A stretch of DNA of 62,463 bases from a virus. Taxonomy: Duplodnaviria; Caudoviricetes. The translations under genes were made by a program, and so were the position numbers. Below, one piece after another: positions 20,549 to 50,837 of the stretch. Location of the stretch: positions 1 to 62,463 of the IMG/VR virus record IMGVR_UViG_3300017788_000024. One strand, given 5' to 3'. Numbering within the stretch: position 1 is the stretch's first letter; the number at the start of each line of letters is the position of its first letter. The notes below the pieces were generated by a model that saw nothing but the letters and a program-made list of their open reading frames with translations, ran no database searches and was not told the DNA's origin.

Positions 20549-20587
20549 AAAAAAAAAGAACCCTAGGAGATTTCTCTCCTAGGGTTC
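20549..20587 (-). terminator. intrinsic terminator downstream of capsid (T-phi position)
   Basis: 13-bp perfect stem GAACCCTAGGAGA/TCTCCTAGGGTTC, GAAA loop, U9 tract on the minus strand. Confidence 0.92.
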
Positions 20588-28461: not shown

Positions 28462-28899
28462 TTACGCTCCGGTAGAACCAAACCCGCCAGTTCCCCGTAC
28501 AGTCTCAGACAACTCCTCTACAACCACGATCTTAGGTGAGATATACGGAACAATTAACAATTGGGCAACCCGATCACCACGATAGATCGTGTGATCAAGT
28601 TTCCCATTATTTACAAAGTGAAGTATAATCTGTCCTCTGTAGTCACTATCAATGATGCCGATGGTATTGATTAGGGAGAACCCCTTCTTTCCCATGCTGG
28701 ATCTAGGACACAGAAGACCAAAGTAACCTTCCGGGATTTCTACGCTTATTTCTGTATTGATTACAACGACCTGTCCCACAGGGACAAACACGCTGTCTGG
28801 TGAATATAGATCATATCCAGCCGACTTGTCCGTCCCCTTGGTGGGGACGAAACTAAAGGTCTCTTTGTTTTCAACAACTATTTTCATTGTGTTAGTCAT
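28462..28899 (-). CDS. dut: trimeric dUTPase
   Basis: AGYDL, PRSS, GIIDSDYRG, RVAQL, RGTGGFGSTG. Confidence 0.97.
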   Translation of the reverse strand: MTNTMKIVVENKETFSFVPTKGTDKSAGYDLYSPDSVFVPVGQVVVINTEISVEIPEGYFGLLCPRSSMGKKGFSLINTIGIIDSDYRGQIILHFVNNGKLDHTIYRGDRVAQLLIVPYISPKIVVVEELSETVRGTGGFGSTGA

Positions 28900-37965: not shown

Positions 37966-40395
37966 TCAACTGAAGAAGTAGATTGACTTAGCGACTTCAT
38001 TGATGTCAAATTCATCTTCTCTTTCTGGAATCTGCGGTAACTTGATCTCATATTTCTTCTCAAGGTATGCCTTGAATTTCTCCAATGGGTTGCTCTTGTG
38101 TATCTGGATGAACTGCTGCTTGAGTATGCGATCCATGGCATCCACATGAGGAGCATAGGTTCCATATGAATCATGAACAAAACTGAATGCTCTTATTCCT
38201 TCAAGAAGCATGGATGATATTGTCATGAACATGTGAGCAGCATCCAAGGAATGAATGAAGTTTGGTGATATCGCAAGGAACTGTGCATCACCGTCAAGAT
38301 CATTGCTGAGCGTGGAGAAAACAAGTTGTTGCTTGTTGAACAACTCCGCATATGATATTCTTTCAATGATCTGGTTGTACACATGCTGAACAACAAAACC
38401 ACTGTCCGTCTCCCATATGAGGGGCTTATTCATTGCGTTGATGAGACGAGCGACTTCCCTAAGGTAGTCTTTGCCCTTGTTTGGTTCCTCCATGGTGCCA
38501 CGAAGACCGTCTTGCAATGCCCTGCTTAGTTCAACAATGGCACCACCACGCTCTTCTTTTGGCACCCAATCAACATGACCTTCTTCCTTGACATACTTCT
38601 GTATGCCATAGAAGGTGAGACCATACGAGTCGCACATGGTTGATCTCTTTGCAACCTTGCGAGGCAGACCATCATCCCAATGCGTAAGGAATTTGGTGTA
38701 CCACTCGTTGTCTGTATGTGTTTTAAAGATTTCATAAGTCTTTTGCGCGACGAATTGATAGAGATCCTGAGGCTTGTCGCTAGGCAATACATTGGTCAAC
38801 TTGGCAAGCCTTGAATCTCTTCTGATTGCAGCCCAATGCTGAACGCCATTGTTGGCACCGTCCTTTTGAACGGGCAACTGAGTCATGCCATCGGTTCGGC
38901 ACAACTCAAAGCATGCAGCAAGTCTTTGGAAGGATGGGTTCTTCTTCTTTGCATCGGACACCCACTCACGATTGTGGTATGGGTCTTCTGCAATGCCCCT
39001 TATCATATCCATGTTGTCATCAACCCATTTGACTCTCTCTTCATACGTCAGTTTGTCCTGATCAAAGAGATTGGCAGCATGAATCTTGAGCCACCATAGA
39101 CCGCGAGGAGTCTGCTTGATTGGCTCTGCAAAATGGATGAGGGCACGATCGAAGTCGATGCCTTGACAACTGAGGAGTTCACATACGGTGTATGCTCTGC
39201 CCCTGAAGTCCAAGGTATATGGCATGTAGAAGAAGTCGTTCTCAAGCATGTTGCGTGCAAGGGAGAGACGAACGAGCATGCGTGAGCGTGCCTGTTCCTC
39301 CTTGTACCATTCACCCCATGCTTCTGTTGATTCCGACATCCACCTTGCCTTCTCTTGCTTTGTCCCTTCTTCTGGAAAGGGACGGGAGAAGGCAAAGTCA
39401 TTGTATGTATGAGCAGGAAGGTTTGCAATCCTGTAGTCCTTGAAGAACATCGTCTTCATGACCTCATAGACTGATCTATTGATCGACCATTCGGTCATCA
39501 TCATTGCATTGATGCCGTCAAGCACCATGTCGGATGGCTTGGAATTGTAGTCCCTTGGATCACATCCGATGGGATGATATCTCTTTATCATCTTCTTTCT
39601 GATCCAAGGATTGAGGAAGCCTCCGTCCTTGGATCTTTCATGAGGAACAGGAGGACAAAGCATTGGTCTGTAGACCATGCTTCCTGTCTCAAGAACATCA
39701 TGCTTTTTGCTCAGTTCCTTGAGTACGTCAGGGGAAAAGGATACCAACAAGGATTTCTTGTTGCGTCCAGTCCATACCACCTTGCCTTCAAGAATGTCCG
39801 AAGCCAAGGCAATCCTGAGCATGTTGTGACCAAAGTCTTCCTTTTGTTTTGGGGTATACTTGTATATCTTGCCCATCTTCTTGGTGAATGCACGACACCT
39901 CTTGGGTGTCCAGTTCTTGATGAACTTGGACTGCCTAAGCCAGTCATCCTTGAACTTTTGCTTTGCTCTCTGGTAGGAGACAATGTTGATTACATTCTCA
40001 GATATGAGTTTTGATAGTGATTGTGCGGTAGGTGCAGAAAGAGGAACACCATGCACAAAGTCTATGTGTGTTATGTTGGATCTGGTAAGAAACAACTCAA
40101 TTACTGCCCTGATGGTTATGTCTGCCATCTTTGCAGCACCAATGGACAAGAGAGGAGGAAGCCATTCGGGATTCTTTGGTCCCTTGCAAACCTTGTCTAT
40201 CCATTGCTGGTAGAAGGGCGTGAGGTGAATGACGGCAGATTCCAGAAGCAACTGCTCTGGCTTGCCTTCGTCCTTAACCCTGTCCCATTCCTTCCAGTAC
40301 CGTTCAACTCCTGCGTTAAGCAGATCCTCTTCCCACAGGAGTTGCTTGTCGATTCTTAACTGCTTCTCAACTGAGTTGAGTTTGTCCCATAGCAT
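37966..40395 (-). CDS. T7-type single-subunit RNA polymerase (RNAP-1, full length)
   Basis: DFRGRAY, motif A KDGANNGVQH, PQDLY, motif B RKVAKRSTMCDSYG, PNFIHSLDAAH, motif C VHDSYGT, C-terminal YFFS. Confidence 0.98.
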   Translation of the reverse strand: MLWDKLNSVEKQLRIDKQLLWEEDLLNAGVERYWKEWDRVKDEGKPEQLLLESAVIHLTPFYQQWIDKVCKGPKNPEWLPPLLSIGAAKMADITIRAVIELFLTRSNITHIDFVHGVPLSAPTAQSLSKLISENVINIVSYQRAKQKFKDDWLRQSKFIKNWTPKRCRAFTKKMGKIYKYTPKQKEDFGHNMLRIALASDILEGKVVWTGRNKKSLLVSFSPDVLKELSKKHDVLETGSMVYRPMLCPPVPHERSKDGGFLNPWIRKKMIKRYHPIGCDPRDYNSKPSDMVLDGINAMMMTEWSINRSVYEVMKTMFFKDYRIANLPAHTYNDFAFSRPFPEEGTKQEKARWMSESTEAWGEWYKEEQARSRMLVRLSLARNMLENDFFYMPYTLDFRGRAYTVCELLSCQGIDFDRALIHFAEPIKQTPRGLWWLKIHAANLFDQDKLTYEERVKWVDDNMDMIRGIAEDPYHNREWVSDAKKKNPSFQRLAACFELCRTDGMTQLPVQKDGANNGVQHWAAIRRDSRLAKLTNVLPSDKPQDLYQFVAQKTYEIFKTHTDNEWYTKFLTHWDDGLPRKVAKRSTMCDSYGLTFYGIQKYVKEEGHVDWVPKEERGGAIVELSRALQDGLRGTMEEPNKGKDYLREVARLINAMNKPLIWETDSGFVVQHVYNQIIERISYAELFNKQQLVFSTLSNDLDGDAQFLAISPNFIHSLDAAHMFMTISSMLLEGIRAFSFVHDSYGTYAPHVDAMDRILKQQFIQIHKSNPLEKFKAYLEKKYEIKLPQIPEREDEFDINEVAKSIYFFS

Positions 40396-43677: not shown

Positions 43678-43850
43678 TAAGAACCAAACCCGCCAGTTCC
43701 CGTCATTGCAATTTCTGCTTTGGGAGTGATGTCCTTCATACTAAATCCAGCAATCAAGAGTTCCATTTGCCCTTGATCTAGGACCACAATGGAACATCCG
43801 TTTATTCCTGAATATGTTTCACCATCGCTTAGGACTACAAAAGTATACAT
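43677..43850 (-). CDS. 57-aa hypothetical protein ending in GTGGFGS
   Basis: TAATG coupling with the upstream gene; manual translation MYTFVVLSDGETY...MTGTGGFGS*. Confidence 0.6.
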   Translation of the reverse strand: MYTFVVLSDGETYSGINGCSIVVLDQGQMELLIAGFSMKDITPKAEIAMTGTGGFGS

Positions 43851-44872: not shown

Positions 44873-44944
44873 TGGTCCCGGTGGGAATCGAACCCACGAC
44901 CCATTGATTAAAAGTCAACTGCTCTGCCGCTGAGCCACGGGACC
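44873..44944 (-). tRNA. tRNA-Lys(UUU)
   Basis: GGTCCCG acceptor stem, anticodon loop CTTTTAA, GTTCGATTC T-loop. Confidence 0.95.
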
Positions 44945-44947
44945 GCG

Positions 44948-45020
44948 CGTTCCCGGCAGGAATTGAACCTGCAACCTACTGCTTAGAAGGCAGTTACTCT
45001 ATCCGTTGAGTTACGGGAAC
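44948..45020 (-). tRNA. tRNA-Arg(UCU)
   Basis: GTTCCCG acceptor stem, anticodon loop CTTCTAA, GTTCAATTC T-loop. Confidence 0.95.
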
Positions 45021-45221
45021 TCAATAGGGACTGTGCTTCTCGATCCTGATCTTGTTCCACTTGAACCAATCGATGATGTGCATGACGAGCGCAGCACCCC
45101 AAAGAACGCCCGTGTACACCCCCACGGTAACCAATGCAGACAAGTCATACAAGTGACCTACTGAAATGCTTGCAATCCCACAAGCAACGAGAACCAATCC
45201 CAACACAAACAAGTCCTTCAT
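45021..45221 (-). CDS. small membrane protein between tRNA genes
   Basis: MKDLFVLGLVLVACG..., two TM segments, AAAGGA RBS. Confidence 0.6.
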   Translation of the reverse strand: MKDLFVLGLVLVACGIASISVGHLYDLSALVTVGVYTGVLWGAALVMHIIDWFKWNKIRIEKHSPY

Positions 45222-45251
45222 AGTCTGGATCCTTTCTGGGTTATTACCCAA

Positions 45252-45326
45252 TAGGCCGGGCAGGATTCGAACCTGCGTCTCCCCAATTATAAGTCGGGGT
45301 GCTTTGGACCGCTGAGCCACCAGCCC
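45252..45326 (-). tRNA. tRNA-Ile(UAU)
   Basis: GGGCTGG acceptor stem, anticodon loop CTTATAA, GTTCGAATC T-loop. Confidence 0.92.
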
Positions 45327-45520
45327 AAAGGCTACTGCATGAGTCAACATACAGTAGCCCATAGACCACACCATGCCTGATGTGGAATCTTCGCCTAGCC
45401 TTTTTGCAAGCAGCCTGTTCGGCTTTGCCTAGGCGAACCCGAGGAGACCTAGGTCGTTGTCTTATACCTCGGTTCTGCAATTGACAGGTATAGCGTAGCG
45501 CGTTGCGTCACTGTGTTGCA

Positions 45521-45556
45521 AGGAAAGAAGCCTAGGATATTTCTACCCTAGGCTTC
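45521..45556 (-). terminator. terminator-like hairpin
   Basis: GAAGCCTAGG/CCTAGGCTTC stem, GAAA loop, short TTTCCTT tail. Confidence 0.55.
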
Positions 45557-45794
45557 ACGGCTATGGTAACCTATAAGACCTCTCTGCCAACAAGGTCTTA
45601 ACTCCAATTACTTTTCTAGCAGTAATTGAACGGCATTTTATGTGTCCTGCTATTTATATCCCGCCTACAGGCTAGGTTGCTTGCGGTCCCCTTCTGGCTA
45701 GAACCAAGGCTAGGGATAGCCTCAAGAATTCTAGGGTATTTCTACCCTAGAATCCTCAACCCGTCTATAAGCCGGACGGGGACGGGGCGGGGTC

Positions 45795-46031
45795 TTAGGC
45801 CTTCGCTTCCGAAGTTGCCGCCGGGGTCTCAACCTTCTTCGCCAACTTGCGCTCCACGCAAACGGCGATCAATGCCTCGATCTTTGCAGGGTCTCGCATA
45901 GTACCCTGCTCAACCATTCCCACCATTCCAAGCAAGCCATGGTCATCCATGGCACGATACCGCTCCAACGCTGACTGCCGTTGGGTGACGGTGACGGCGT
46001 ACTTCACGCCATCTAACAGAAATGTAGGCAT
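45795..46031 (-). CDS. early hypothetical protein
   Basis: 78 aa, AGGAG RBS. Confidence 0.65.
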   Translation of the reverse strand: MPTFLLDGVKYAVTVTQRQSALERYRAMDDHGLLGMVGMVEQGTMRDPAKIEALIAVCVERKLAKKVETPAATSEAKA

Positions 46032-46144
46032 GTCCTACTCCTAAGTTGCCTGTATCCACAGGCAAGGTAGTGAAAGTGTACCAGAAACACTCTGGTACAT
46101 GAAACACCCGTCAAGCCTTCCCGCTCAACGGGCGCGAAAGAGGA

Positions 46145-46531
46145 TCACCTCTCATGCTTGCACAGGAACATCGAACAACGAACTGCCACTGTGTGCAGTT
46201 CAGACTCCTGAACTAGAATCTTCCGAATCGACTTGGAACCGTTGGAGACATCCTCCTTGTCGGAGTCGGTGTAGTTATGAACCGGCTCATTTTCGTACTT
46301 CTCCGTGAACTCGATCAGTCGTTCAAGAGTATCCAAGAGCAAGGTCAACTTCTGAACAAACTTCTTCCAATCCAACATGGTAGCATCAACCACGATCACA
46401 TCCGTGGCAACGCTCTCCTGCGTGGATTCATCCACGCTCCGTACTCTAGACATCCTGTCTAGAATCTTCAACCCTCGGAGACGGAAGTCTCCAAGGACAG
46501 ACCTATAGTAATGGTCTATGTACTCTGACAT
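46145..46531 (-). CDS. early hypothetical protein
   Basis: Start MSEYIDHY after AAAGGA RBS. Confidence 0.55.
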   Translation of the reverse strand: MSEYIDHYYRSVLGDFRLRGLKILDRMSRVRSVDESTQESVATDVIVVDATMLDWKKFVQKLTLLLDTLERLIEFTEKYENEPVHNYTDSDKEDVSNGSKSIRKILVQESELHTVAVRCSMFLCKHER

Positions 46532-46622
46532 GCATGCTTCCTTTCCGGCAGGCACACCCCACCGTGCCCTGCCACATCTGCCCGGCAGCCCCCGGGCTTA
46601 CCACCGGGGGCTGCGGTCCGGG

Positions 46623-46876
46623 GTACACTCCGGGGTAGAAAAAAGCAGATACCCCCAAGGATGTACCCATGTACCCAAAATCGTACCAAAAGTACCCCAA
46701 GGCGTACCCAAAAGGCACGAACTACGGTACGGTACGAGTACAATGCGGTACTTAGGGGTACCCTACGGTACGGATTACGGTATGGTAAAAGTACCATGCG
46801 GTACATAGGGGTACCCCACGACGTACCGTAGGGTATGGTATGGTAGGGCATGGTACAGTAGGGTACCGTGGGTACC
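46623..46876. repeat. GTAC-dense non-coding array
   Basis: 19 GTAC tetramers counted in about 255 bp. Confidence 0.9.
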
Positions 46877-46901
46877 TTTCTTCATCTCCTTCTTGCTTCA
46901 T

Positions 46902-47324
46902 TTAGCCATTCTTCTGCTTGTATCCCTCCTTGACATGGAGATGGGTGTGCCACCCAGTGGCACGCGCCTCAGCGGTGAACTTCTTGAAGAACTGCCACTT
47001 GGCCTCCGACAGGTTGGGATTCCTGACGGTGACCGAGATCTTCTCTCCCGAGACAGTATGAACTGCCTTCGCGGAGACGAGGAACTCGTCCCCAATCTTC
47101 TCCAAGGAGATGTGGGGAGTCTCCCACTGATTGGGGATGAAGTCCCACCCCAATGCCTTCAACTTCATCTTCAAGGGAGCGTAGGGCATGCCCACGCTCA
47201 CCTTGAACGGGAGACTGCTGATGTCTCCCTCGATGTTGGTGACGGCATACGTCCTGTCCACGATGATCGAAATCATCGTGGTCCTGTCCTTGGACAAGAT
47301 CAGGTGGTGCAACGATCCACGCAT
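46902..47324 (-). CDS. early hypothetical protein
   Basis: GGAGG RBS before ATG at 47324; a downstream alternative start (MISIIVDRT) is possible. Confidence 0.6.
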   Translation of the reverse strand: MRGSLHHLILSKDRTTMISIIVDRTYAVTNIEGDISSLPFKVSVGMPYAPLKMKLKALGWDFIPNQWETPHISLEKIGDEFLVSAKAVHTVSGEKISVTVRNPNLSEAKWQFFKKFTAEARATGWHTHLHVKEGYKQKNG

Positions 47325-47434
47325 GACAACCTCCGGTGCTAAGCACCGATAGAGAAATGAACGCCCAGCCACGTTGGCTGGGTAAATCCTCCGCCCCCGG
47401 TTAAGGGAGCGGAGGGTTCCACGCCCTGCGTGCG

Positions 47435-49195
47435 TCAGCCCAAGAAGTGTTGAGCCTTCCCGAACCGGTTCACATCTGCTCCCTCGTAGGGGAGCGGCTG
47501 AACCTTGGAAGGAATCAACACGGCAGTGTTGAGCCACTGCCGATCCAACTTGTGGATCATGGCCACCCTGAACGCTCTCCTGACCCAGAATGCCCCACAG
47601 ATGTGGGTACCAAACGAGTCATGGATCGGAGCCAGACGGTACCCCGAATTCTTGGCCATCACGGCCAGGAAGTGAACGAGAGAGGCATCCACCGAATGGA
47701 TCACATTCGGTGGTCCCGCCGCATCCGAGGACTCCATCTTCACGGGCTGGAAGGACACGCGGTACCTACCATCATACCTACTGGTAAGGTTGATGGTGAT
47801 AGGATCTGCCTCAAGATCCACCACCATCTGGCGGTTGAACACATGACAGCCGCTTGGTGATGTCCAGTTAAGGACACAACCAGCCTTCCCAACCGCCCTA
47901 GATGCTGCCTTGATCGCCATCATGGCAGGCCTCAAGCGAGTGGTCAAGCCACTGACCGTCTCACTTCCGAACAAGGCATTCTCGTAGGCACGGGCGACAT
48001 CGCTTGCCACACGAACGGCAAGTTCCCAGCCCATGTCCCTCCACACATCGCAGAACCGACCGTTGAGGTCGTCCAACGAGATTGCCTCAAGCGAACCCGG
48101 AAGATAGTTCCCGATGTCATCAAGGAACTTGATCTTCTTGGTGCCATCCTTGAGGATTGCTCCCCGAGTCAGGCTGGGATTCGCTGCCGAGTACACCATC
48201 GGCATGATGAAGCCCTTTGCGGTCTTCCGATCCCAGAAGAGAGGGTTTCCCCTCACTTGGGGAGGAAGAAGACCACCCTTGTCCACCAACTCAGCAGTTG
48301 CACGGTAGATGCATTGCTTGGTCTCCGAGGGGTAGAGGTTTGTGAATCGACACAAGCCCTCGTCACCAGTGAACCAACCGAACAACGCCGGTCCACTGGC
48401 AGTCTGGTCCTGCTGAAGGATGTATCCAGACTTCCCCTCTTCAAGGATCTCTCGGATTGCCTCCGCTGCACGGAGAGTGCAGAACGGCTTCTTGCTTGTG
48501 GCAGTTTTGATGAACGCCACTGGGTCGGCAAGAATTGACCGATAGTTGGCTTCGGTCACGCCGTACTCCTCTGCAACCACCTGCAAGAAGATCTGGATGT
48601 CATGATCCGATGCTGGCAACTTCTCCGAGAAGTCACAGATGGCTCTGTGTGCATCCCCACCTTGGTAGGAGGCGATGCCTTGGCTATCCGTGTACACTCG
48701 GTAGCGGAAGTCCGGGAACATGGGAAGGAAGTACTCCCTAGTCCCGAAGACAGCGAACTCCTTCAACATCAGGAGTTCCATCATGTCTTTCTTCGGATCG
48801 AAGAACCCTTCCGAAGCAAGGCTCCGCATCGTCGCCAGAATCAGGGGATTGGGAACGAACGTTCCCTCGCTCAGGTAGTTGACCGCCTCCATGTAGGTTG
48901 GAGACAAGTCATTCCCGAGGATGTTTCCCTCTGGGGCGATGCTACGACGCCGAACCTCATCGTTTCCACGCTGAAGCCGACCCGCAGTGCTACCCTTGAA
49001 GGGAACTCTGCCGTTCCTGATGAACAGCCTAGCGTCCTTGCCCTTGCCGAGCGGGAACACCTTGAGGTTTCCCTCGTCGATCCCCATCTGGACCAAATTC
49101 GCCAGATCCTCCGGCTCCGTGCAGCCGGTCATGCTGGCGATGCGCTGCATGAAAGCAGACGCACGCAGAACATGGTTCAACAGGTACTCGTACAT
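47435..49195 (-). CDS. second, N-terminally truncated single-subunit RNA polymerase (RNAP-2)
   Basis: DFRYRVY, motif A QDQTASG, motif B RKTAKGFIMPMVYS, PNVIHSVDAS, motif C IHDSFGT, C-terminal HFLG; AGGAG RBS. Confidence 0.93.
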   Translation of the reverse strand: MYEYLLNHVLRASAFMQRIASMTGCTEPEDLANLVQMGIDEGNLKVFPLGKGKDARLFIRNGRVPFKGSTAGRLQRGNDEVRRRSIAPEGNILGNDLSPTYMEAVNYLSEGTFVPNPLILATMRSLASEGFFDPKKDMMELLMLKEFAVFGTREYFLPMFPDFRYRVYTDSQGIASYQGGDAHRAICDFSEKLPASDHDIQIFLQVVAEEYGVTEANYRSILADPVAFIKTATSKKPFCTLRAAEAIREILEEGKSGYILQQDQTASGPALFGWFTGDEGLCRFTNLYPSETKQCIYRATAELVDKGGLLPPQVRGNPLFWDRKTAKGFIMPMVYSAANPSLTRGAILKDGTKKIKFLDDIGNYLPGSLEAISLDDLNGRFCDVWRDMGWELAVRVASDVARAYENALFGSETVSGLTTRLRPAMMAIKAASRAVGKAGCVLNWTSPSGCHVFNRQMVVDLEADPITINLTSRYDGRYRVSFQPVKMESSDAAGPPNVIHSVDASLVHFLAVMAKNSGYRLAPIHDSFGTHICGAFWVRRAFRVAMIHKLDRQWLNTAVLIPSKVQPLPYEGADVNRFGKAQHFLG

Positions 49196-49265
49196 GATGT
49201 ACCTATCTCCTAGTTGACCCAGTTAGTGAAAGATCTGTGGTTGGGTCAGTTCACAGACCTTAGTT

Positions 49266-49328
49266 GCTGCGACAGTGCAGCCCAAGGACTCCCCCATTGC
49301 TGGGGGAGCCAAGGGCAGCACTGTCGCA
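49266..49328 (-). promoter_or_regulatory. hairpin element copy 1 (upstream of RNAP-2)
   Basis: gctgcgacagtgcagc plus ctccccca-ttgc-tgggggag plus gcactgtcgca. Confidence 0.75.
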
Positions 49329-49342
49329 ACGGAAGATCTTAC

Positions 49343-49732
49343 TTACTTGAGTTGTGGCGGACAGTTCTCTCCCTTCTTAATCATGGCCAGGATTGCGGCG
49401 TTTGCACGCCGACAATCAAACTTGGAGCCGAAGGTGTCGTGGAGGCTGCGTTGCCCCCACTTGGGGCCGGAGGTGTCGTGGAGGCTGCGCTCCCCGGCCT
49501 CCTTTCGACCCACCACCACAGATTCCACCGTCTTCCTCAAGGAGGAAATGAACTCCTCCATTGTGAAGATGGCGGTCTTGATCTCGTCCCCTGCAACACT
49601 CAGGGGAAGGCTCACCGAGAAAACTGGGACATCATAGCCCCCGCCTCGGTGAGCATGGTGGATGATGTAGCCAAACTTATCGCTACACCAGAGGGAGAGC
49701 CCCTCGCCTGCTGGACACAGATACCGTTTCAA
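49343..49732 (-). CDS. early hypothetical protein with a 13-aa tandem repeat
   Basis: TTG start after AGGAGG; RSLHDTSGPK / RSLHDTFGSK. Confidence 0.6.
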   Translation of the reverse strand: MKRYLCPAGEGLSLWCSDKFGYIIHHAHRGGGYDVPVFSVSLPLSVAGDEIKTAIFTMEEFISSLRKTVESVVVGRKEAGERSLHDTSGPKWGQRSLHDTFGSKFDCRRANAAILAMIKKGENCPPQLK

Positions 49733-49790
49733 TGGTATCCTCCTTTGCCCTATAGTGTAATGCCATGCATTGGGCATGTGCATGACATGT

Positions 49791-49844
49791 GCTGTGACAG
49801 TACAGCCATGGCTCCCCTATTGCTAGGGGAGCCGAGGTTATACT
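49791..49844 (-). promoter_or_regulatory. hairpin element copy 2
   Basis: gctgtgacagtacagc-cat-ggctccccta-ttgc-taggggagcc. Confidence 0.8.
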
Positions 49845-50049
49845 ATCCGTTCTCTTCCTCCAGCATGTGCTGGAGGACTTCTCCCGCGTAGGAAAGAAGA
49901 GTACCGCTAAGGACCACAGGGGGTGTTCCCAACTCCAAAACACCCGAGGGGCCCCTTGCGGAGAGCAAGAGATCCCTATCCCCGTACCAAATTGTGAACA
50001 CCCCAAACTGATTCGCCACCACACCGATGCAATGACTTTCCTTAGTCAT
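49843..50049 (-). CDS. early hypothetical protein
   Basis: 68 aa, AGGAG RBS, between elements 2 and 3. Confidence 0.6.
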   Translation of the reverse strand: MTKESHCIGVVANQFGVFTIWYGDRDLLLSARGPSGVLELGTPPVVLSGTLLSYAGEVLQHMLEEENG

Positions 50050-50107
50050 TACACTCTCCTATTGCCCTACGGTGTCATGTTATGCATCGGGCATGTGCAT
50101 GACATTT

Positions 50108-50162
50108 GCTGCGACAGTGCAGCCATGGCTCCCCTATTGCTAGGGGAGCCTAGGTTACACTG
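50108..50162 (-). promoter_or_regulatory. hairpin element copy 3
   Basis: gctgcgacagtgcagc-cat-ggctccccta-ttgc-taggggagcc. Confidence 0.8.
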
Positions 50163-50259
50163 ACAAGCCCGCAAGGACCGCGTAGAGGATCCATGCGGCG
50201 ATCGCGAACACCCAGACCAAACGATCAACATAACGCTGCATTCTTTGCGAGAAACGCAT
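50155..50259 (-). CDS. 34-aa early membrane peptide
   Basis: MRFSQRMQRYVDRLVWVFAIAAWILYAVLAGLSV; AAAGGA RBS. Confidence 0.55.
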   Translation of the reverse strand: MRFSQRMQRYVDRLVWVFAIAAWILYAVLAGLSV

Positions 50260-50298
50260 GACGGATTCCTTTGCCCAATGGTAGGCTGGGCTGCCTTT

Positions 50299-50354
50299 GC
50301 TGTGACAGTACAGCCATGGCTCCCCTATTGCTAGGGGAGCCAAGGACATACTGT
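50299..50354 (-). promoter_or_regulatory. hairpin element copy 4
   Basis: gctgtgacagtacagc-cat-ggctccccta-ttgc-taggggagcc. Confidence 0.8.
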
Positions 50355-50437
50355 TCTAATTGGGGGGGTAAGGGGGGTAACGCTACCTCCCAATTTGTTA
50401 CTACCCCCGTCCAAATTCCTGACCCCCTAGTCGATTT

Positions 50438-50581
50438 TTATTTTGCGGTTTTCTTGGACTCCCTGAATGCTCTTGATGTGGGGGCACCCTTGGATCCCGG
50501 CTTGCGCATCTTTTCTCCAGATCCTGCCTTGATTCTCTTCCGTTTTGCGTGTATGTTGTCGTAAAGACCTCTTTTCTTCAT
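50438..50581 (-). CDS. small basic phage protein
   Basis: MKKRGLYDNIHAKRKRIKAGSGEKMRKPGSKGAPT... Confidence 0.75.
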   Translation of the reverse strand: MKKRGLYDNIHAKRKRIKAGSGEKMRKPGSKGAPTSRAFRESKKTAK

Positions 50582-50582
50582 G

Positions 50583-50837
50583 TCAGCACTTCCACTTTCT
50601 TCGTGCCTTGCATGCCCTCTTGTCCGGGGTAGCACGGCAATCGATGTCGAATTTCTTGATCTGACCTAGGTTGCGGGCACAAAAGGACTTCTTTCTTGGT
50701 CCCCCTCCGGGTTGCGGCGGCTTGAGGTTGGATCCGGTCTTTCGGTTGATCATGGACCTTCCCTTGGCGGTAAGCCCTCCGCTTGGATCTTTGCATCCAT
50801 TCTTGATGCTACATCCTTTCATATCTCCCTTGCTCAT
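50583..50837 (-). CDS. small basic phage protein
   Basis: GGLTAKGR...GSNLKPP...RKKSFCAR...ARRKWKC; TAATG coupling to the giant ORF. Confidence 0.75.
   Translation of the reverse strand: MSKGDMKGCSIKNGCKDPSGGLTAKGRSMINRKTGSNLKPPQPGGGPRKKSFCARNLGQIKKFDIDCRATPDKRACKARRKWKC

Follow-up and report, generated by a model that had tools for sequence, protein, structure and literature searches.

The open reading frame (ORF) at 47435-49195 on the minus strand of the window, that is, of the whole 62,463-nucleotide (nt) stretch of phage DNA studied here (IMG/VR record IMGVR_UViG_3300017788_000024), encodes a single-subunit RNA polymerase (RNAP) of the T7 family. The protein, hereafter the short RNAP, has 586 amino acids (aa) from an ATG start, and Pfam, PHROG, alignments and an AlphaFold2 (AF2) model agree on its domain, motifs and fold. 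It keeps the whole catalytic core, namely palm, fingers, motifs A, B and C, the Asp and Arg residues of the DxxGR region and the C-terminal foot. The same phage carries a full-length canonical T7-like RNAP of 809 aa (RNAP-1; 37966-40395, minus strand), which was recognised in profile and six-frame searches. Together with a double-hairpin element, a 140-aa protein and a GTAC-repeat array, the short RNAP makes up a conserved four-part module. Judging from sequence comparisons, we consider it probable (roughly 0.6) that the short RNAP is an active, stripped-down, factor-dependent auxiliary polymerase acting on the cis elements of its own module.

The short RNAP matches Pfam RNA_pol (PF00940) over residues 234-547 with 58.1 bits (cut-off 22; 57.9 bits in a six-frame search) and phrog_414, annotated as RNA polymerase, over residues 147-549 at 8.6e-44. 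The latter match covers positions 375-771 of the 816 in the profile, so the short RNAP corresponds to just the C-terminal half of a normal phage RNAP. An earlier reading of the window from its letters alone (the sequence-only reading) had described the ORF as a minimal 586-aa RNAP, and the ORF call and both family matches bear this out. The frame open from stop to stop holds 595 aa, only nine codons beyond the ATG; therefore, a longer form cannot be read. As that reading had also noted, the gene has its own ribosome-binding site (AGGAG, 11 nt before the ATG) and GC-rich codons, with a GC content of 0.563 and a GC content at third codon positions (GC3) of 0.70, versus 0.460 and 0.535 in RNAP-1.

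The catalytic motifs were located by alignment. The equivalent of DxxGR, expected near residue 160 in the short RNAP and about 395 in RNAP-1, is D162-F163-R164-Y165-R166 in the former and DFRGR at 396-400 in the latter; D162, R164 and R166 are conserved and align with RNAP-1 DFRGR. A word-indexed protein search gave 20 homologues with 43-100% identity (alignment A1). In all 20, D263 of motif A, K327 and Y335 of motif B, and the block P496-N497-x-x-H500-S501-x-D503 (PNxIHSxD) are invariant. H525-D526 of motif C is kept in at least 90% of them, and the sole exception seen (P0016) diverges over its whole C-terminal end. Motifs A, B and C are thus intact, as claimed, and line up with their counterparts in the RNAP-1 family, while the C-terminus (...HFLG) aligns to ...YFFS of that family. 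The motifs of T7 RNAP were placed at what we take to be their residue numbers.

The AF2 model of the short RNAP has a pLDDT of 84.2 and a pTM of 0.83. Its residues 49-586 align to residues 246-883 of T7 RNAP (883 aa) in elongation complexes, with Z 28-30 and a root-mean-square deviation of 3.2-3.9 over 445-465 residues, and some initiation-state T7 entries extend the alignment to model residue 5 and T7 residue 201. The fold, the catalytic motifs and the C-terminal foot are thus shared with T7 RNAP, and RNAP-1 shares the motifs and foot. In a profile-profile comparison by hhalign, residues 98-586 match residues 288-809 of the RNAP-1 family with a probability of 99.8%, leaving unmatched about 45 residues in the thumb helices of RNAP-1, and residues 1-97 have no match to RNAP-1 1-287. 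In addition, the short RNAP gives no match to RPOL_N (PF14700) at E up to 1, whereas RNAP-1 gives one. Most of the N-terminal promoter-binding domain is therefore absent, as the sequence-only reading had stated, and the canonical full-length architecture of T7, T3, SP6 and RNAP-1, with an N-terminal domain of about 250-300 aa, is not that of the short RNAP. In front of its core there is just a helix-helix-beta-hairpin (residues 12-61 of the model), in which the hairpin at 44-61 might take the role of the intercalating hairpin, and about 200 N-terminal residues of T7 RNAP have no counterpart. The AT-rich recognition loop and the refolding subdomain of T7 RNAP presumably lie within these residues. 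In T7 RNAP the missing domain serves in promoter binding and opening, and it refolds when the enzyme leaves the promoter; the neighbouring ORFs give no match to it (probabilities of 0.1% and 0.4%). Meanwhile, the profile aligns residues 442-550 with T7 724-836, where we take the T7 specificity loop to be; because this span is modelled as a run of beta-strands (442-488 is beta-rich) at the place where T7 has that loop, the model suggests that the specificity loop is probably kept.

The best PDB profile matches of the short RNAP are mitochondrial RNAPs, yeast Rpo41 and human POLRMT (2.1e-16 and 1.7e-14; Z 25-28). Mitochondrial RNAPs are factor-dependent for promoter opening. Unlike the short RNAP, they are twice its size and have large N-terminal extensions, and their factors Mtf1, TFB2M and TFAM have no detectable counterpart in the phage.

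The small size is a property of the family. All 20 homologues of alignment A1 are within 550-641 aa, and 17 of them are 583-602 aa. A local truncation of a protein whose homologues are full length, which the sequence-only reading had named as the outcome that would overturn it, does not fit these lengths and the conserved catalytic residues; the short form is native. Among 1.84 billion representatives, 4993 matches at E <=0.001 came up in a profile search without an index, and the best 150 of them were sized. Among these best 150, 61 have 480-679 aa (59 of them starting with Met) and 76 have 740-900 aa, while eight are below 480 aa and five above 900 aa; full-length RNAPs first appear there at E ~1e-22 and match through the core alone. 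The relatives of the short RNAP are as small as ~520 aa.

A FastTree phylogeny was reconstructed from the 142 representatives of at least 480 aa, RNAP-1 and gp16 of phage N4 (144 rows) over the 435 columns common to short and long proteins. The short RNAP falls into an all-short set of 46 of the 144 rows with an SH-like support of 99, and a tree from all columns agrees. The label short or long changes 11 times on the tree, versus 46 times when labels are shuffled. The short RNAPs are likely to form a clade; we say likely rather than proven because FastTree is prone to joining long branches. N4 gp16 lies outside the 46-row set, in a group with three single-chain proteins, P0165 (674 aa), P0140 and P0123 (the other two lengths in the group being 581 and 637 aa), and these three may represent N4-type RNAPII fused into one chain.

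Among 50,697 deposited phage records, no match over 80% of the length was found for the short RNAP or for two other short RNAPs (P0052 and P0024); the cores of the three match deposited full-length RNAPs at 23-27% identity. No related loci of P0052 and P0024 were found among the viral contigs. More distant short RNAPs (L087 = G002, L088 = G003, and L008/L009) have 590-641 aa and a canonical DxxGR, and keep an extended block ...YTDS...SYQxGD.HRA.CD(F/Y)AE. Passages of PMC13029058, PMC11880802, 10.1101/2024.01.28.577649 and PMC8386662, and the literature reached by full-text searches (without subscription journals and supplements), describe neither single-chain RNAPs of this single-subunit type below 600 aa nor T7-like phages that carry an additional short RNAP, which does not prove that such descriptions are absent.

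The surroundings of the short RNAP were compared in six distinct contexts (the window, L001/L002, L003 (= L005), L004, L006 and L007), across which RNAP identity to the window falls from 66% to 32%. In all six, an ORF of about 140 aa lies directly downstream of the short RNAP. In the window this ORF, at 46902-47324 (minus strand), starts with the ATG at 47324, with GGAGG 6 nt upstream. Its product belongs to no known family and gives no Pfam or PHROG match; five relatives were found in databases, and the 10 known members have nine invariant columns, including Q66-W67, H89 and H126-x-H128. The model is confident (pLDDT 90.4), and Foldseek against the PDB gave nothing at E up to 0.001. In a wide structural search a binder designed de novo ranked first (Z 8.5), ahead of rows resembling the double-stranded RNA-binding domain (dsRBD) or HPF over residues 64-126 (Z 5-6.5), with Atlas TM values below 0.5 throughout. 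The alpha-beta-beta-beta-alpha topology of the model resembles that of a dsRBD, which we take as a lead only. A search for fused or longer forms of the protein found none, which is weak evidence. Co-folding with the short RNAP (score 0.00 in two runs, for which there were no controls) speaks neither for nor against binding. The sequence-only reading had proposed a cofactor among the neighbouring small ORFs and named those at 46902, 49343 and 49843. The first is the one conserved in 6/6 contexts; among the relatives, that at 49343 has a homologue in L004 only and that at 49843 has none. By its position and conservation, the 140-aa protein is a natural candidate for a cofactor or DNA/RNA-binding partner. 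The 110-nt spacer between the two genes (47325-47434, minus strand) holds three GC-rich hairpins, one of which (47382-47364) is followed by a T-rich run.

Upstream of the short RNAP lies the double-hairpin element, in which a 10-bp GC-rich stem with a GCAA loop is followed by a 5-bp stem. The alternative in the sequence-only reading, action on hairpin or single-stranded templates, would at least find conserved hairpins there. The copy at 49252-49329 (minus strand; copy 4) ends 70 nt upstream of the RNAP start codon. Three further copies (49777-49852, 50094-50169 and 50285-50360, minus strand) each lie ~39-60 nt before the start of a small ORF, and the overall range of 39-70 nt depends on three start codons that we re-read. 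As listed, the small ORFs are at 49343-49783, 49843-50049 and 50155-50349 (minus strand), the listed starts of the first and third being inside the repeated element. The likely start of the first is a TTG near 49731, and its product resembles the ORF just before the RNAP of L004; that of the third is the ATG at 50259, giving a hydrophobic peptide of 34 aa. The first stem of the element occurs four times in the whole window, always within 49264-50348, and the element is restricted to the upstream regions of module genes: the complete relative G001 has exactly one copy, before its short RNAP, and L004 has three. Among eight aligned copies, compensatory changes occur at three of the 15 pairs, for example from UA to CG in four of the eight. 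L003 and L006 have repeats of a different sequence at the same position, those of L006 being AT-rich with weak hairpins.

Directly after the 140-aa ORF is the GTAC-repeat array (46651-46900, no strand assigned), which includes a 53-nt tandem pair at 46714-46819. It holds 18 GTAC in 250 nt, where the mean over the window is 0.59 (standard deviation 1.2); the total of 148 GTAC in 62,463 bases is below what we would expect for a 4-mer. In five of the six contexts, L007 being the exception, the 250-nt stretch of the locus with the most GTAC is right after the 140-aa ORF. The words GTAC or GGTAC(C) of these arrays lie in non-coding DNA at ~12300-12650 in L002, ~4500-4800 in L004, ~10700-11050 in L006 and ~4300-4650 in L003.

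Both polymerases are kept together. A full-length RNAP is encoded 5-8 kb downstream of the short one on the same strand in G000, G001 and G004, and likewise downstream in G002 (complete, 61 kb) and G003, which belong to a distant branch of short RNAPs (38% identical to P0034); it is present in 5/5 records long enough to show it. RNAP-1 is 84% identical to its counterpart in L002, versus 61% for the short RNAP, and the corresponding values for L003 are 77% and 52%. The faster evolution of the short RNAP and the lineage-specific elements fit a polymerase that co-varies with its recognition site.

The module also differs from the rest of the genome in composition. The GC content is 0.55 at ~50.4-45.5 kb, versus 0.41-0.49 across most other parts of the window (mean 0.461), and in the six contexts GC3 is 0.59-0.83 in the genes of the short RNAP and its partner, 0.36-0.54 in RNAP-1 and 0.32-0.40 in the giant ORF upstream. 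Two terminator-like hairpins in tandem (45724-45755 and 45527-45556, minus strand) mark the end of the GC-rich module and are of the type CTAGGrnA-GAAAT-...CCTAGG followed by a T-rich tail; a third hairpin of this type follows the capsid gene (20556-20587, minus strand). Just behind the module terminators are the genes of tRNA-Lys(UUU), tRNA-Arg(UCU) and tRNA-Ile(UAU) (44873-45327, minus strand), which read exactly the codons AAA, AGA and AUA. In the seven module ORFs (45795-50259), AAA is used for four of 70 Lys (6%), AGA for 7% of Arg and AUA for 7% of Ile; the corresponding shares are 19, 36 and 33% in RNAP-1, 41, 60 and 24% in the giant ORF, and 10-60% everywhere else. Because the GC-rich module avoids the codons of the phage's own tRNAs, its codon usage suggests that it is translated before these tRNAs become available, i.e. 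as an immediate-early unit.

Taken together, these observations can be read as follows. The module would be expressed immediately early. The short RNAP, unlike T7 RNAP, would be unable to open a duplex promoter alone, and would work as a factor-dependent auxiliary polymerase on the lineage-specific cis elements of the module. The factor that confers specificity or loads the enzyme would most likely be the 140-aa protein, and RNAP-1 would be left with the bulk of middle and late transcription. Such a logic would be like that of N4 RNAPII with gp2, with a separate origin.

Several points weigh against this reading. The hairpin element could equally be a site of RNA processing or stability. If the sole hairpin copy of G001 is a promoter, its own operon would be the only target and another polymerase would be needed for the first round. 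Searches for a promoter family of either polymerase (exact k-mers, and 16-mers with <=3 mismatches, in 6270 nt of intergenic DNA) found none, and returned only the hairpin element, the terminator type, GTAC repeats and purine-rich strings like ribosome-binding sites. The GC-richness of the module could mark foreign origin and not timing; however, an unameliorated foreign origin is harder to square with a GC contrast kept across very diverged lineages. The module directly follows the late operon (terminase and three giant ORFs) on the same strand, so that its position alone is no proof of early expression, and no RNA sequencing runs holding the region are listed; the single DNA run that contains most of it is labelled as a freshwater metagenome. 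As for the partner, it lacks a family or a convincing structural relative. No homologue of it was recognised by eye among the ORFs after the RNAP in the distant G002, and therefore short RNAPs in general may not have such a cofactor; inspection by eye likewise recognised none next to the short RNAPs of G003 and L008/L009. Finally, the most conserved motif stretch (159-178) is modelled at a pLDDT of only 31-40.

The short RNAP might instead serve in replication priming, with the GTAC array as an origin, the short RNAP as the maker of the primer and the 140-aa protein as an origin-binding factor. There are precedents in T7, whose RNAP acts at a primary origin directly following gene 1, and in mitochondria, whose RNAP primes at a stem-loop origin. 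The dense, iteron-like array that follows the partner gene in five contexts would suit an origin, a polymerase without a duplex-opening domain would suit single-stranded or structured DNA, and RNAP-1 is present for ordinary transcription. However, the phage encodes its own primase/helicase (phrog_239, 2.2e-154), no AT-rich unwinding stretch was seen beside the array, and the array may instead mark a terminus, serve packaging or be a cluster of promoters. Priming also leaves the upstream hairpin element unexplained, and we regard it as a rather unlikely function. The same degree of doubt applies to a relay as in N4, in which the minimal RNAP would start on hairpin or iteron DNA, for transcription or for origin priming, and RNAP-1 would then take over. 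Should such a relay be true, the clade of 520-660-aa proteins would represent the smallest natural single-chain DNA-dependent RNAPs and their factor a new class of specificity factor.

A narrower version, which we think improbable, is a cascade of the N4 kind with hairpin promoters. Here the short RNAP, made very early or carried in the virion, would start at extruded double hairpins without melting the duplex and drive the immediate-early module, after which RNAP-1 would act. The two conserved hairpins with their compensatory changes, their location shortly before module genes and nowhere else, and the lack of enrichment of sigma-70-like sites (four found, 3.9 expected) are in favour of it, although the sigma-70 scan rests on the Escherichia coli consensus, which may not be that of the host. 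In addition, the module is closely preceded by three giant ORFs (1672, 899 and 3856-3946 aa), a parallel to the ejected giant protein of N4; one precedes the short RNAP in all four contexts that reach far enough. However, neither PHROG and Pfam scans of pieces of the giant ORFs nor phmmer against the PDB revealed an RNAP domain, and six-frame searches with PF00940 and phrog_2166 found no RNAP in G000 and the complete G001 beyond the two known in each. Because domains like that of the N4 virion RNAP are hard to detect, this negative is no exclusion. The hairpins are also unlike the early promoters of N4, which have a stem of 5-7 bp and a 3-nt loop according to PMC4496689, and L006 has its AT-rich repeat with weak hairpins in the same place. 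The codon usage of the module, for its part, favours early translation over virion packaging of a late product.

We see very little chance that the short RNAP is a catalytically dead or regulatory paralogue, derived from RNAP-1 by decay, which would have lost polymerisation and bind only nucleic acid or RNAP-1 itself. Such decay would account for the replacement of the DxxGR Gly (by Y, F, W or T) in all 20 sequences of alignment A1, the low confidence at which this motif stretch is modelled, and the evolution of the short RNAP, which is faster than that of RNAP-1. However, the metal-binding Asp residues, Lys and Tyr of motif B and the PNxIHSxD block are invariant over the full range of identities, the whole core folds like T7 RNAP, and relatives within the clade keep a canonical motif (DNAGR in L007, DWRGR in L087). 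The identity of the short RNAP to RNAP-1 is about 25%, which shows that it is no recent decayed copy.

The nearest known parallel to such a protein is N4 RNAPII, which PMC4496689 describes as a minimal T7-family RNAP, among the smallest of the family, with truncated N-terminal domain and thumb. It is formed by gp15 (269 aa) and gp16 (404 aa; 673 aa in total; PDB 6dt7) and has the single-stranded DNA-binding activator gp2. The short RNAP is similar in its truncated N-terminal domain and thumb and in its place among the presumably early genes of a phage with more than one RNAP, where a factor is expected. Unlike the N4 heterodimer, which is split just after the DxxGR block, it is a single uninterrupted chain and 87 aa smaller; its DxxGR motif is at 162 versus ~234 in gp15, so that the region before the palm is about 70 aa shorter. 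The carrier phage is T7-like and not N4-like in layout. The superposition that the sequence-only reading had proposed agrees well with T7 RNAP, whereas N4 RNAPII reaches only Z 16.5, and neither sequence nor fold is closer to N4 RNAPII than to T7 RNAP. Its term, a single-chain RNAPII analogue, thus holds for a minimal one-chain RNAP and fails for any relation to N4 RNAPII beyond the family. That the short RNAP is an orthologue of N4 RNAPII fused to one chain and acquired from an N4-like phage is hardly tenable: apart from the shared reductions, it gives weak matches to phrog_2051, phrog_2166 and 6dt7_B (E 4.8e-4), but T7 and mitochondrial RNAPs match far better (1e-12 to 2e-16), hhalign gives gp15 and gp16 probabilities of only 26-29% over short stretches (154-193 with gp15, 206-288 with gp16), gp16 falls outside the 46-row set on the core tree (by FastTree only), and the partner is unlike gp2 (hhalign probability 3.6%, the 140-aa ORF being the sole phage ORF compared). 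The short RNAP is not of the N4 RNAPII lineage, and at most works like N4 RNAPII.

A single chain of 586 aa that keeps every catalytic element, in a large clade of which the three members compared have no full-length match in deposited phages, makes several questions testable: what a single-subunit RNAP needs at minimum to transcribe processively from specific promoters, how a polymerase without a refolding N-terminal domain escapes from the promoter, and why strong selection maintains a further RNAP in a phage that has a canonical one. As tools, compact orthogonal RNAPs that come with a small specificity factor would be of use, and experiments can start from the 140-aa protein and the GTAC array.

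All genes of the window are on the minus strand, and the gene order is that of a podophage with a T7-like layout. Along this strand, a giant ORF of 3856 aa (62407-50837) is followed by the GC-rich stretch and the three tRNA genes, then by small ORFs and thymidylate synthase, RNAP-1, primase/helicase, DNA polymerase and ribonucleotide reductase, and finally by portal, capsid, tail and internal proteins and terminase. In the complete relative G001 (67 kb), three large ORFs (1672, 899 and 3946 aa) come after terminase and a 225-aa ORF, the first of them beginning without a gap. The window is cut between the first and the third of these giant ORFs (CheckV 91%): the start of the first is at its left end (1102-2, minus strand), and the third is complete. 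The third giant ORF gave weak matches alone, to an RNase H-like stretch and a SprT-like HExxH stretch, and the three very large ORFs may be ejected or polyvalent proteins. The direct terminal repeats of G001 sit among structural genes, which points to an artefact of circular assembly, and G000 is cut inside the giant ORFs.

Two strongly basic small ORFs lie directly after the giant ORF (50583-50837 and 50438-50635, minus strand). The former, of 84 aa, matches DUF6321 (1.1e-18) and the C-terminal ends of several large PHROG families, and is 88% identical in L001/L002. In addition, an exact 22-nt repeat (28474-28495 and 43680-43701, minus strand) was considered as a promoter and rejected, as it codes for the C-terminal peptide (...GTGGFGS) that two small ORFs, unrelated in other respects, have in common; one of the two lies directly before the ribonucleotide reductase gene.

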